Below are positions 29,272 to 50,670 of a stretch of DNA of 64,000 nt, one piece after another (the stretch's first letter is position 1; the number at the start of each line of letters is the position of its first letter). This DNA comes from a virus. Its lineage: Duplodnaviria; Caudoviricetes. Under the pieces are notes generated by a model. It was not told the DNA's origin. It worked only from the letters and a program-made list of their open reading frames with translations, and did not search any database. Made by a program: the position numbers and the translations under genes. The stretch is taken from positions 1-64,000 of the IMG/VR virus record IMGVR_UViG_3300028591_000143. One strand, 5' to 3'.

Positions 29272-30480
29272 CTAACTAAATAACTCTTCATAGTACTCCT
29301 CTGTCTGACCAATAAGATCATCCTCTGTTACTATTTTTCTTTCATATCCACATTTAATACTTCCCTGTGACTTAGCATATCTGGCTAATTCATACTTTTG
29401 AGCATTAGTTATGGGAACTTCAGGGCTAACACAATAACCAGAATATAAACATAAACCAGAATGAAACTTAATCCATCCCCTCCTATCAAGCTCCCAGTCT
29501 ATATTCTCCTTCGGCCTAGCCCATCCATAAAGATCATGAATTCTATCAGCAAGTTGTATATGTAAAAACTGACTAGATTCTCCACAAACAGCATAAACTT
29601 TACCTTCCGGAGATATATAACCCGCATCCCATCCCTTAGTAATATCTACTGGCCTCAAAAACTCTAATTCTGTTTTTAATACTTTTTCTTTATTTAAATG
29701 ACTAATAATACTATCGTTATTATCATCTAAATCTACCGTTTTATATACAGAAAGAAGGGTTTTTAGACGATCTTCATTAGACTTATAATCACCAATGTAC
29801 AATAACAACATATTTCCATTGTACGATAGATTTTGAAGGGCTATTAATCTATCTTTATCTCCTCCATATTGCTCAAAAATCCAGGAAACACAAGGTATAA
29901 GTTTGGAGGTGGATTGAAGGAATGTATCGAAATTAGACAATAAACCTAATAATTCTATCTGAATGTTTTCACTTTCTAATATATCCCTCTGATTCCATAA
30001 ACTTAATAATTCCTCTAATCCTAATGTACAATATCCATTCCAAGTATAGCCTAAATCTACAGTATCAGGAATATTATAAAGCTTCTTAAAAAGATCTTCT
30101 GAAAAGGTCTCTACTTTCTGTGTACCTCCCTTATATAACTCATTCTTTATAATACCTATCAGATTTAACCCGTACTCTAATGATTCGGATAACTTAGTGT
30201 TAGCCCACTTACTCCAAGAGATAGGATTAGGATAAGACCTATTTACTTCTGGGTCAAGAGAATTATAATCTACTATATAACAGGTTTCTTTGTCTTCACC
30301 TACTACTATAACTTTATTTCCAGATAATAAATCAAGTGCATATTCTGGTGGTGCTCCTGATTGAGAAAAAACCTTATAAGCACTCTCTGGATCATACCCC
30401 ACTATTATATGCTCTCTTGATATTTCACTTAATAATCTACCAAAACCTTTTCCAAGCTTAAAATGTAAAGTATCTTCCAT
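29272..30480 (-). CDS. Hypothetical protein (402 aa)
   Basis: Long ORF with C-terminal GYISPEG...H..LA...GWIKFH segment; function unknown. Confidence 0.55.
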   Translation of the reverse strand: MEDTLHFKLGKGFGRLLSEISREHIIVGYDPESAYKVFSQSGAPPEYALDLLSGNKVIVVGEDKETCYIVDYNSLDPEVNRSYPNPISWSKWANTKLSESLEYGLNLIGIIKNELYKGGTQKVETFSEDLFKKLYNIPDTVDLGYTWNGYCTLGLEELLSLWNQRDILESENIQIELLGLLSNFDTFLQSTSKLIPCVSWIFEQYGGDKDRLIALQNLSYNGNMLLLYIGDYKSNEDRLKTLLSVYKTVDLDDNNDSIISHLNKEKVLKTELEFLRPVDITKGWDAGYISPEGKVYAVCGESSQFLHIQLADRIHDLYGWARPKENIDWELDRRGWIKFHSGLCLYSGYCVSPEVPITNAQKYELARYAKSQGSIKCGYERKIVTEDDLIGQTEEYYEELFS

Positions 30481-30889
30481 TATTTAGTAGTTCTTTTTTG
30501 AAATTTTTTGAAAATAGTAAATACCCAGGTTCGTTTCTGAATACGAATTCATAATAATGCCCCGTTACATCACACACATAATTAAAATAACGTGCAGGTA
30601 AACCAACCTCAGTATAATTACATTGTTCTAAAAGATAAGAAATACTAGATTCAATACAGTGTGGGTTAATTAAATTTGGTGACATACAAATATCTTCATT
30701 AGCTTCACATATTTCAGTAATAGTTGCTATCCTCCCTGTTTCAGGATTATACAGGGGGTATTTGTAATAGATATAAGATATTCCACCCATTGACCTTACT
30801 AATAATATCCTCTCATCCACAGATAATCTATTATTCTTAAATATCTTCCCTAGTTTTTTTGGTATAAATACTTCATACATGTTTTTCAA
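30458..30889 (-). CDS. Hypothetical accessory protein
   Basis: 143-aa ORF in helicase island A. Confidence 0.5.
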   Translation of the reverse strand: MKNMYEVFIPKKLGKIFKNNRLSVDERILLVRSMGGISYIYYKYPLYNPETGRIATITEICEANEDICMSPNLINPHCIESSISYLLEQCNYTEVGLPARYFNYVCDVTGHYYEFVFRNEPGYLLFSKNFKKELLNNGRYFTF

Positions 30890-30926
30890 ATATTACTATA
30901 TAATTTATTGACCTGTAATATGTGGT

Positions 30927-47852: not shown

Positions 47853-49942
47853 GGTTCAGTTAGGTCTTTTATTGTTTCTTCTTTTATCGAGACTATTAGA
47901 TATCCTTTGTCTCGTTTTCCTGTCTCTTCGTTTTTTATGTCGACGGTTTTGATTATAAAGTAATCTCCAAGATCCACTGCCTTCGGAGTTTTTGAATACC
48001 CAACAGAATCATATAGATGTTTTAGTTTCTTTTTTATTTCTGTCTTTGTATATTTTTCTCCAACAGTAAAGGTATCTATAATTAATGTCCCTATATCTAT
48101 TGATTGATTCCCTATTATTCCCTCATATGCTTTCTTCATGTCTGTTGCATCAAATCTTAAGGCTCTCATTCTATCTGGCCCTAAAACAACATAGTAATTA
48201 TTAAATGATTCAGGTAAATGTGGTAATAATGAGTTAGCAACACTTTCCTCTAGAGAACATAGGTACCGTAATTTATCAGGAAGGTATTTATAAGAATATA
48301 GTTTATCGAGATAAAAATTAATATCATCTACTTCTCCTATTGTTTTTGATAACGAAGAAAATACATTAAACCTATCCTTATAATCCACTTGTTGTACATC
48401 GAAAGCCCTCATTTCTGATATCATCACCAATTTATTAAAAACTGGTTGTAAATCTGATCCAGCATGTTTATTTACTGCTACAAAATTCTTTCTATAACTA
48501 CTTAATTTTGTTAACTCTAAATATGCACTTGCTAAATCATGTTTGGCACTACTATTAGAGGTATTATATGCATCGAGTAGATTATTAGTAACTCTCTCTT
48601 TATTATCTAAATAATCTTTAAACTTTTCAGTCGTAATTACTTTCGTATTGAGTTTATAAAATAATTCTGCTCTGTTTTTCCAAGGATTCTCATCTAATCT
48701 CTGTCTTCCAAGAATCTGTGGTAAGTCTAGAGTAATATCAACTGATAAACAATCCACATTAGCATCAGAAAATATAAAAGACCTGGCATTAGTAGAATAA
48801 AAGTCTGCTCCAAGGTACACTGTTCTGGTACAAAGGGTAAACATTTTGTGGGGTTCTCCTTCTTTTGGAACAGTACCTATACACCTCTTTGTCTTATTTA
48901 CTGACACATCTCCTGCTTTCTTTAGTGCAGTTTTTATTTTTCTCTCATTTTCATCATTTCCTGAACAAAGAATATTAGCTTCATCTAATTTGAGACCACA
49001 CTTTTTAATTATATCACAGAGATTTTTGACAGAATTAATATAAAACACAGCCTCTTTACTATATACTTCCTCAAAACTGCCATCTTCTTTTTGTCGTGTG
49101 AGCTTTTCAAATTTGCCCTCTCTGTAGGTATTAATGATCCTCTCTACTTCTCCAATCATACTTTTCTTTGAAGAAATTAGCTTGGTTTTTATATAAGGTT
49201 TAATAACTCTTCCTGGATTTTCACTAGTCCAATCAAGCTCATAGTAGGGAAGGTCTTTGTATTCATCAAGTTGTTCCAGATATGTGTCGATCATTGGTGT
49301 AGCAGAAAGATAAATTACATTATCTAATCCTTTTAGATTATACATGAATTCATTTTCAGTATCGGGCTTGAAGCGTGAATCACAGAAAATACTCTGAAAC
49401 TCATCAACTATAATTTTATATTTTTTTATTGAATCTCCAAGCGTCTCTTTTATCCTCCGAAAAGAATCATAGGTGACCATAAACTTCGGAGACCTATGGT
49501 ATTTGATATAACAAAGTGAGACATGATCTTCTATCTTTTTCTTAAGTTGCTTGGTGTATTCCTCTGCCCTTTTCTTTGTTTTTTCTTCTTTTTCCTTCTC
49601 TGTGTCTCCATCTAATAAACCTTTCTTGGACTTTGAATCCTTTGAAATGTCCTTATCATAATTCTCAAAAGAGTTATATTCATTCCTTAGGTATAGTAGA
49701 TTTTCTTGATCTTTATGTTGTTCCTCTTTATTTTCAAGAAGGACTAATCTAGGACTACAAAGAATGACTGGATAACTGTTTGTGAGCCAATACTCAGTAT
49801 ATCCACATCCGGTAATAGTTTTGTTCATTATGTAGGATTGATTCTCCGGAACTAGGTCCCTCAATCTTTTACCCTCTTCAAGGTTGTCCCAATCATTGAT
49901 ATACCTAATATCTCTGGGAACTTTAATTACGTATTTCTCCAT
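47849..49942 (-). CDS. SF2 (DEAD/DEAH-like) helicase paralogue B
   Basis: KTITGCGYT, ILCSPR, VTYDS, VDEFQSIF, YLSATP, HKMFTLCTRT.YLGADFYST, DLPQILGRQRL and KTPKAVDLGDYF, all shared with paralogue A. Confidence 0.8.
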   Translation of the reverse strand: MEKYVIKVPRDIRYINDWDNLEEGKRLRDLVPENQSYIMNKTITGCGYTEYWLTNSYPVILCSPRLVLLENKEEQHKDQENLLYLRNEYNSFENYDKDISKDSKSKKGLLDGDTEKEKEEKTKKRAEEYTKQLKKKIEDHVSLCYIKYHRSPKFMVTYDSFRRIKETLGDSIKKYKIIVDEFQSIFCDSRFKPDTENEFMYNLKGLDNVIYLSATPMIDTYLEQLDEYKDLPYYELDWTSENPGRVIKPYIKTKLISSKKSMIGEVERIINTYREGKFEKLTRQKEDGSFEEVYSKEAVFYINSVKNLCDIIKKCGLKLDEANILCSGNDENERKIKTALKKAGDVSVNKTKRCIGTVPKEGEPHKMFTLCTRTVYLGADFYSTNARSFIFSDANVDCLSVDITLDLPQILGRQRLDENPWKNRAELFYKLNTKVITTEKFKDYLDNKERVTNNLLDAYNTSNSSAKHDLASAYLELTKLSSYRKNFVAVNKHAGSDLQPVFNKLVMISEMRAFDVQQVDYKDRFNVFSSLSKTIGEVDDINFYLDKLYSYKYLPDKLRYLCSLEESVANSLLPHLPESFNNYYVVLGPDRMRALRFDATDMKKAYEGIIGNQSIDIGTLIIDTFTVGEKYTKTEIKKKLKHLYDSVGYSKTPKAVDLGDYFIIKTVDIKNEETGKRDKGYLIVSIKEETIKDLTEP

Positions 49943-50670
49943 ATATGTAATAGTTTTTAATTATTTTAATTTCTGTTTAATACAGATTCCAGTTTTAATA
50001 AAGGAGCTTCTTATATAGAAACTTCCTTAAATATTTTTATTACATATATAAGGGTTTGAGAAAAAATGAGGGTAAAAAAGTGGTCGAAGAGGTTTTGTTA
50101 GAAGAGAAAATAACTAAAAACCCCTTAAAATACCCCTAAAAGTGCTATTTTAAGTGGTCGCTGCGACAAAAGGGTGTGAAACAAAGGAGCTATCCTAATA
50201 TAATACCTATCTATTAAAAATGTCGCAATATTATGTAAGAGTACTTTATTTTAAGTGGTCATAAAAAATTGAGGGTACACTTTTTCGAGCTAACAGAGGA
50301 GCATCCGGTAATATAATGGAACAAAAAGTGTATTTAGTGCAGTTATAAAAAAGTAATATTGTTTCCCTCGTTATAATCCCCTTTGGGGCTTACAACTTCG
50401 AAAATTCCCCAATAATTTTGTAGAAGAGGCGTAGCCTATTCCTACAATGATAACCCTGTAGCAACTCAAGTGGGTCCCACTGAAACCGACGTAGGAGGTT
50501 TTATGGGCTTGAGTTGTGGAAGGGTGTCAGGAGGGAAGCTCCTGTGTTAGCGAGAATTAGGTCCGTAGTTGTAATCGAATACCACGCCTTAAAGCGCTAC
50601 GGACGATATGAAAAAACATATAATTAAAGTTCCCGACCGATATCACATCGACCGAGAGTGTGATTAGGTC
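49943..50670. other. Structured non-coding region upstream of helicase B (origin-like or ncRNA)
   Basis: Direct repeats TATTTTAAGTGGTC (50146, 50247), two inverted-box pairs and nested hairpins over 50418-50604. Confidence 0.65.

Follow-up and report, generated by a model that had tools for sequence, protein, structure and literature searches.

Dispersed helicase-like genes with structured upstream regions in a large-phage genome: candidate origin-plus-initiator cassettes

The phage record IMGVR_UViG_3300028591_000143 (G000) comprises 97,588 bp, the first 64 kb of which constitute the window analysed here, and since CheckV completeness of the record was only 26%, the source was probably a jumbo phage. 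The minus strand holds nearly all genes of the region. Two islands of the window, A and B, each run from upstream DNA free of open reading frames (ORFs) into a gene for a long helicase-like protein and further into a set of small genes. A previous sequence-only reading of this DNA had described them as paralogous and of shared layout, which was borne out, as the helicase-like proteins A and B are full-length paralogs with 36% identity (E 5e-127). The reading had put the number of copies at two; the genome-wide count added a third full copy, C, and a C-terminal module of the same family within a 342 amino-acid (aa) nuclease ORF. The main features are as follows.

31555-33684, minus strand: helicase-like copy A, 709 aa from the TTG at 33684, the ATG at 33666 being the likelier start
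47849-49942, minus strand: helicase-like copy B, 697 aa
84164-86254, plus strand: helicase-like copy C, third full copy, outside the window
86251-87279, directly after C and outside the window: 342-aa nuclease ORF, carrying only the C-terminal module of the helicase family
33685-34113, minus strand: non-coding region upstream of A, 429 nt without an ORF, with blocks in common with the region upstream of C
49943-50671, minus strand: true non-coding region upstream of B, 729 nt from the tube stop to the B start, without a plausible ORF

At the protein level, A and C were 67% identical, and the B ortholog found at the same site in the relative L006 was 74% identical to B. As had been read from both ORFs, motifs II, III and VI are kept (DEFQ, SATP and QILGRQR), the P-loop reads GCGFT in A and GCGYT in B instead of GxGKT, and the C-terminal motif KTPKA..DL..YF...ETGK is common to the two proteins. 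Copy B does separate the tail tube gene (phrog_45) from the tape measure gene (phrog_9570), whereas the "tailspike" and "gp5-like" labels given to the neighbours of A found no support in family searches.

No model for the helicase-like proteins was found in Pfam, PHROGs, NCBIfam or PADLOC, and a family-profile search of PDB sequences matched no chain. More than 5,500 database proteins matched at E ≤ 0.001, and the exhaustive profile search gathered 2,596 clusters at 50% identity, all of them unnamed and with viral taxonomy wherever it was recorded. The P-loop pattern K-x3-G-C-G-x-T was present in 249 of 274 family members and the canonical GxGK[ST] in none of them (0/274), while DEFQ was found in 206 and QILGRQR in 210 of the 274. 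Residues D180 E181, S213 A214 T215 and Q409..G412 R413..R415 (motifs II, III and VI) were invariant in a 40-sequence alignment. In Phab24, ET-ABTNL-9 and D'Alembert, three cultured phages with distant homologs, the P-loop pattern was the same, and the upstream lysine of this pattern (K41 in B) was invariant, which suggests an ATP site that is rewired rather than dead.

The AlphaFold2 model of B (pLDDT 79, pTM 0.70) displayed tandem RecA-like domains, as expected of an SF2 fold. In Foldseek comparisons of this model with the PDB, the best matches were Brr2, Hel308, Hjm, RecQ5 and BLM (E 1e-9 to 1e-8, probability 1.0), and the RNA helicase Prp43 was also among the best solved structures. After one close relative, the best viral matches in BFVD were "replication origin-binding proteins" of herpesviruses and giant viruses (E 1e-10 to 1e-7), with TM-scores of only 0.3-0.4 and with general SF2 helicases scoring similarly. 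The Pfam model Herpes_ori_bp (PF02399) gave no match at E values up to 1. The earlier proposal of an SF2 helicase likened to UL9 agrees with the predicted structure in the SF2 fold, the likeness to UL9 being possible, and as in that proposal the family has a C-terminal part predicted to bind DNA, probably a helical plus winged-helix module.

A link to replication was obtained from domain fusions. Six cluster representatives of 937-967 aa (P0225, P0230, P0248, P0250, P0256 and P0257) were fused to BT4734-like_N, an AEP primase domain, with 50-64 bits against a cut-off of 22.4, and one of them also matched PriCT_1 below threshold. The primase was confirmed by PrimPol models of NCBIfam and PADLOC (E 5e-12 and 7e-19). 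The surroundings of the fusion genes were those of replication and nucleotide metabolism, with neighbours for a UvrD-like helicase, a Toprim protein, thymidylate synthase or DHFR. None of the three copies in this genome is fused to a primase.

The relatives compared were G001 (complete genome of 400.9 kb with terminal repeats), G002 (IMGVR_UViG_3300047159_000056, 207 kb), G003 (101.5 kb), G004, L006, L010 (a locus of G003), L011, L012, L013 and a 332-kb contig, together with the three cultured phages named above; a megablast search of the phage collection with the whole region returned no match. Besides the three copies of the 97.6-kb record, six full copies were present in the complete genome G001, dispersed 57-87 kb apart and co-directional with their neighbours, and each of the three ~90-kb cultured phages had one. 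In G002, two family copies (201690-203788 and 132126-134920) were split into a helicase-core ORF and a C-terminal-module ORF, and may be decaying copies or naturally split forms.

Gene for gene, the relative G003 is collinear with the record over the whole stretch that starts at the head genes and continues over sheath and tube to tape measure and baseplate. Its tube stop is followed by about 118 nt and then by seven unrelated small genes up to the tape measure, and this interval contains no family member, no long non-coding region and none of the genes found downstream of B. In G003 the B-type copy resides elsewhere and an A-type copy lies between the homologs of g26773 and g23467, and in L011 a copy directly follows the g28613 homolog. 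The cassettes are accessory, not fixed tail genes. The earlier view of the islands as insertions was upheld by the empty tube-to-tape-measure site of G003 and by the varying positions of A-type copies in L010 and L011, and the two genes are not syntenic and fixed in all relatives.

In the phylogenetic tree, two copies of the 332-kb contig paired (100/100) and four of the six G001 copies grouped together (82/95), whereas the two A/C-type copies of G003 paired weakly (81/56), though one of these occupies the same site as C. Such genome-wise pairing points to repeated duplication within genomes to new sites, or to gene conversion between copies. At the island borders, no terminal repeats or target-site duplications bracketed A or B, the sole notable inverted repeat being the one that brackets the upstream region of B. 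As a mobility enzyme, the one candidate is the GIY-YIG-type nuclease that sporadically adjoins copies.

Non-coding DNA ahead of the gene was a constant attribute of the copies examined. The ORF-free upstream stretches measured 429 nt (A), 729 nt (B, tube intron and exon 2 removed) and about 730 nt (C), and the corresponding gaps were 390-1,219 nt in G001 (6/6 copies), about 800 nt in the 332-kb contig (3/3) and 0.9-2.2 kb in the cultured phages (3/3, with 2.2 kb unannotated in one of them). In the cultured phages, the family gene is the first gene after a point of divergent transcription. The structured DNA that had been noticed ahead of each gene was confirmed as stretches with significant folds (z -3.9 for A and -4.3 for B), of which the first is located as follows.

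33856-34021, minus strand: A/C-type structured element, a three-way junction (P1-P3) plus a long hairpin

The 166-nt element of A was 96% identical to its counterpart at C, compared with 71% identity for the coding DNA and 67% for the proteins of A and C, and its fold (z -3.86) was not equalled in stability by any of 200 shuffles. Compensatory changes were observed in 21 of the 53 pairs, against 11.8 +/- 2.2 in shuffles and 2-9 in slid controls, in an alignment of five sequences from three lineages from which the structure itself was derived. In the 332-kb contig, an upstream block was likewise 97% identical, the proteins being 58% identical. The elements are genome-specific, and within a genome they reach 96-97% identity, far above that of the proteins (58-67%).

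The possibility of a single RNA family for all upstream elements was dropped. A covariance model restricted to P1-P3, as the full element was too long to calibrate, matched only beside A/C-type genes, i.e. its own training lineage, and returned no match to the upstream regions of B, of G001 or of the 332-kb contig. As the B element was missed, the islands share a layout and not one RNA family. A scan of viral contigs with the junction motif GCCTTCCCG...GCCANAA was also discarded, as it produced about 108 mostly chance matches in unrelated phages, and an exact 20-mer scan gave no matches. Within the window, Rfam at gathering score and a tRNA scan identified nothing, and a permissive Rfam search of the upstream regions found only a sub-threshold intron match.

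The region upstream of B is organised differently and includes the end of the tube gene, with the following features.

50400-50671, minus strand: B distal structured element, 272 nt, starting with a terminator-like hairpin at 50657-50631
50078-50260, minus strand: three GACCACTT repeats with spacings of 101 and 74 nt
50606-50634, minus strand: 5' arm of a long-range inverted repeat, 29 nt
49916-49944, minus strand: 3' arm of the same repeat, covering the B start codon and the first nine codons
50765-50920, minus strand: group I-like intron in the tail tube gene, 156 nt, with exon 1 at 50921-51418, exon 2 at 50675-50764 and the stop at 50672-50674

The distal element (z -4.32, with 0/200 shuffles as stable) had identical minimum-energy and centroid structures, and in L006 it was 94% conserved with its hairpins maintained by paired changes. 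The repeat GACCACTT occurred five times in the 97.6 kb, always on the minus strand, when about 1.1 occurrences per strand were expected, and it was confined to the upstream region of B (three) and the intergenic region between g81717 and C (two, with the same 74-nt spacing). The long-range arms were complementary at 24 of 29 positions, and as sense-strand RNA 28 of 29 positions pair when G.U is included; in L006, 25/29 plus one G.U were kept despite different first codons. The statistical support of this repeat is borderline, with a chance expectation of about 0.06 by rough estimate. The pairing suggests that B is translationally silent on transcripts reading through from the tube gene.

Part of the apparent gap between the tube gene and B was confirmed as the 156-nt tube intron. 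The end of exon 2 was set by collinearity with the tube protein of L013, and the joined exons encode 196 aa, collinear over all residues with the uninterrupted 197-aa tube protein of L013 (63% identity, E 7e-92). The Rfam model Intron_gpI matched at full length but below threshold (21.3 bits against a gathering score of 50, E 0.0067), and the tube genes of G003 and L006 have the same interruption.

With regard to promoters, the earlier reading had placed a promoter-like motif ahead of each gene. Sigma-70-like sites were not enriched (85 found, 90 +/- 9 expected); short leader motifs specific to the cassettes do exist, including a putative promoter motif between the A/C element and the gene. 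A CCTWATAWATRAA-like motif was located upstream of A and C, and also in intergenic DNA upstream of a mini-protein array and of several small plus-strand genes (window positions 28087, 28277 and 28464, minus strand; G000 positions 87286, 95613 and 95671, plus strand), and may represent a promoter class of the phage. Directly 3' of the g34114 stop, a hairpin-containing 70-nt segment (34045-34114) was 78% identical to intergenic DNA at G000 79535-79605.

The ORF that follows C matched MUG113 of the GIY-YIG clan with 24.2 bits against a cut-off of 22.3, and T5orf172 more weakly. More than 230 homologs of similar length were found, and IY...KIGY...R32...E73 was invariant across 31 nuclease homologs. 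The last ~170 residues were 58-60% identical to the tails of A and C (54-60% for the tail over all comparisons), and hhalign aligned the nuclease family with the helicase-like family over the last ~158 residues (probability 100%, E 5e-47). The final 65 residues of the nuclease model best resembled winged-helix domains, e.g. RFX, at a modest Z of 5.6, and a Foldseek search of this model against the PDB gave nothing significant. Besides C, one copy on the 332-kb contig and three of the six in G001 are followed by the nuclease, which the close relative G004 lacks at the site in question; the copies of G003 are not followed by it either. In Psychrobacter phage D'Alembert (L018, 5665-8321), the homolog is annotated as "DEAD-like helicase" and is directly followed by an HNH endonuclease, beside the terminal repeat; this is a different nuclease class in the position of the GIY-YIG-type partner seen here. 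A fusion of similar kind is known from ICP1, where Odn is a T5orf172 nuclease with a borrowed initiator DNA-binding domain and cuts the origin of that initiator (PMC8263062).

On these grounds we propose, with a probability of roughly 0.4, that A and B are copies of a dispersed origin-plus-initiator cassette which duplicates within large-phage genomes, sometimes together with an Odn-like nuclease. The parts of a cassette are 0.4-1.2 kb of non-coding DNA with a stably folded element and, after it, the gene for a UL9-like, helicase-shaped SF2 protein of about 700 aa. Each cassette would represent a local replication-initiation unit, composed of an origin and its own initiator in the manner of archaeal origins adjacent to orc/cdc6, and the winged-helix tail would bind a site in the upstream region of its own cassette. 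Duplication within the genome would be the means of spread, joined by homing-like or exclusion events in those cassettes that have the nuclease. In the case of B, the long-range RNA helix would bury the start codon in tube read-through transcripts, leaving transcripts from an internal promoter of its own as the sole source of B protein. The sequence-only reading had left the choice between initiator-origin cassettes and a selfish element carrying cargo genes; the former gains support because PrimPol fusions exist, the cargo part found no support, and the interpretation as a whole is partly supported.

Several observations weigh against the proposed cassette. The canonical Walker A lysine is missing family-wide, and ATPase and helicase activities are putative; likewise, the origin activity of the cassettes is something that we infer, and several diverged initiator paralogs in one phage would be unusual. 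In G001, GC skew reflects nothing but the orientation of the genes and shows no additional inflection where the internal copies lie, and just six of the 25 gaps of at least 380 nt in that genome lie upstream of copies. The A/C-type and B-type elements are not detectably homologous, and the covariation of the former depends on about three independent lineages, with a structure taken from the same alignment. Furthermore, the folded elements keep G.U pairs on the sense strand of the gene, which fits RNA or single-stranded DNA (ssDNA) better than a duplex binding site. A wider generalisation would be that jumbo phages have several dedicated origins, each set by a rewired-P-loop SF2 initiator and a folded RNA or ssDNA element, and that origin-initiator cassettes constitute a novel type of selfish unit which duplicates itself and which is kept in check or disseminated by nucleases with a copy of the initiator's DNA-binding tail; this we regard as speculative and unlikely.

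The rival that survives best, although we consider it unlikely, is a purely selfish cassette, in which gene and element copy themselves to new intergenic sites or to co-infecting phages by homing-like repair, helped by the nuclease and with no role in replication. The variable positions, the empty site and the pairing of copies by genome in the tree would all be accounted for, as would the sporadic nuclease partner (after C here, absent at the same site of G004) in a genome that is rich in homing-endonuclease-like genes and also harbours an intron. However, most copies have no adjoining nuclease, the islands are devoid of terminal repeats and target-site duplications, and each ~90-kb cultured phage retains just one copy, at a type of site that is conserved. 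All catalytic motifs but the lysine are invariant across about 2,600 clusters, indicative of strong selection on enzymatic function, and the primase fusions point to a replication role.

Somewhat less probable is a module acting at the RNA level, where the protein would be an RNA helicase or chaperone, or a transcription or antitermination factor, working on the structured RNA upstream, and the cassette a self-regulated unit that restarts or insulates transcription in long operons. A DNA substrate is favoured by the primase fusions and by the winged-helix tail, which a DNA nuclease has as well; the elements of the A/C type differ completely from those of the B type, and the putative promoter motif between the A/C element and the gene means that the element may lie outside the gene's own mRNA. 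An RNA role is nevertheless consistent with the sense-strand covariation including G.U pairs, with the long-range helix over the B start codon, with the co-direction of all copies with their neighbours, with the RNA helicases Brr2 and Prp43 among the best solved-structure matches, and with the place of the gene in the cultured phages as the first one after a divergent promoter region.

It is improbable that the cassette is a phage competition or counter-defence module, in which the protein and the Odn-like nuclease recognise an element of a rival or satellite, or protect the phage's own copies. Odn demonstrates that a T5orf172 nuclease with a borrowed DNA-binding domain can be a weapon (PMC8263062), and fast-diverging multi-copy paralogs with genome-specific elements would be compatible with such use. 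Neither the helicase-like protein nor the nuclease had a PADLOC match, however, and most cassettes have no nuclease; moreover, the closest relative of the nuclease tail is the neighbouring gene of the same genome, which makes the phage's own element the likeliest target. Finally, that these are fixed structural or assembly genes of the tail module is very improbable. In its favour, both islands are embedded in blocks of virion genes, and the tube gene of the distant relative L013 is also followed by a family member. It is contradicted by the empty tube-to-tape-measure site of the collinear G003; in cultured phages and on the 332-kb contig, moreover, the copies have metabolic, replication or early genes around them, and the fold is that of an SF2 motor.

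The genes downstream of the helicase-like copies differ between the islands.

29272-31536, minus strand: four genes downstream of A, encoding 56, 143, 143 and 402 aa, without family matches
46407-47852, minus strand: genes downstream of B, an 82-aa basic protein overlapping the B stop and then three paralogous 132-134-aa genes

Small genes are present after A and after B, as had been stated, but the two sets are unrelated to each other. The three 132-134-aa genes between B and the tape measure (46407-47599, minus strand) had mutual identities of 33-71%, and the genes that follow B had no matches in family searches. Nothing informative came from searching Pfam, PHROG and the PDB with g81717, g90000 and the small genes of the islands. 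A gene like g31366 is present in G003 without an adjacent helicase-like gene, and together with the differing downstream sets this leaves the idea of cargo genes unsupported. The A-type copy of G003 precedes a gene weakly similar (25% identity) to the 132-134-aa genes (L010:12640-12957).

Other observations concern the surrounding genome. Between 50915 and 59503 of the window, conservation against the closest relative (L006/L012) was mosaic, as the tube, g56628 and g59517 proteins were 98-100% identical and the sheath, g53892 and helicase-like B only 72-78%, which indicates recent recombination in blocks. Two paralogous HNH homing-endonuclease-like genes reside in the head and tail gene blocks (window 60264-61388, minus strand, and G000 75698-77302, minus strand), the second of which matched phrog_559 (E 1e-79), and G003 has one HNH homing-endonuclease-like gene at a different site (about 41.8 kb). 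An MI.FRQK.F-type (capsid-targeting) leader was found only at the start of seven head-region proteins (window 57062-58632 and 63958-64000, on to G000 81284) and on none of the island genes; the small genes after the tube gene of G003 start with leaders resembling it.

With about 2,600 protein clusters, up to six copies per genome, a link to primases through fusions and a folded non-coding element as its constant companion, the family would offer a concrete and testable answer to the question of how phages of 300-400 kb start and coordinate their replication. The K-x3-GCGxT loop is of interest to enzymologists as that of a P-loop motor which has no canonical lysine and yet keeps every other catalytic residue. 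Through the recurrent pairing of a nuclease with the DNA-binding tail of the helicase, the principle of Odn, so far that of one cholera phage, would apply to a broad phage group, and the single-copy homologs in Phab24, ET-ABTNL-9 and D'Alembert make these ideas testable at the bench.

Among known systems, the seg/mob homing endonuclease genes of T4-like phages are accessory, lie between conserved genes with expression signals of their own, and are sporadic among relatives. The cassettes resemble them in these traits, and differ in that the main ORF is helicase-shaped and most cassettes have no nuclease. With ICP1 Odn (PMC8263062), the partner of C has in common a T5orf172-type GIY-YIG nuclease joined to a DNA-binding module that also belongs to an initiator-like protein. 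Here, however, the nuclease is N-terminal and the domain order reversed, cleavage and target are putative, the tail donor is the phage's own neighbouring gene and not RepA of a parasite, and the pair recurs in many genomes.

In the origin-binding helicases of herpes simplex virus 1 (UL9) and giant viruses, two RecA-like domains, motifs II, III, V and VI and a C-terminal predicted DNA-binding region are found as in the present family, which is distinguished by the missing Herpes_ori_bp match, the P-loop without the canonical lysine, a tail that is a winged-helix module common to a nuclease, and genes in several copies, every one of them with a separate non-coding element. Kazlauskas et al. (2018) had described UL9-like SF2 domains, uncharacterised at that time, in fusion with AEP primases of phages, and predicted a new helicase family (PMC5862659). 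Those domains (pVOG1685/9714) are likewise a helicase-like module of phages and plasmids, fused in some members to an AEP primase and PriCT; the two are likened by description only, and in the present family the primase is C-terminal to the helicase module and of the BT4734-like family.

In haloarchaea, each origin depends on an adjacent cdc6 gene, and origins are found in different places of related chromosomes (PMC3528665, PMC3936714). The likeness to the cassettes lies in the multiple origins of a replicon, which each adjoin and require an initiator paralog of their own, and in sites that differ between otherwise homologous chromosomes, some origins appearing translocated or newly acquired. 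The archaeal initiators are AAA+ Orc/Cdc6 proteins acting on duplex ORB repeats of cellular chromosomes with proven origin activity, whereas the phage cassettes would combine an SF2-like motor with a folded element of single-strand type and a presumed origin activity.

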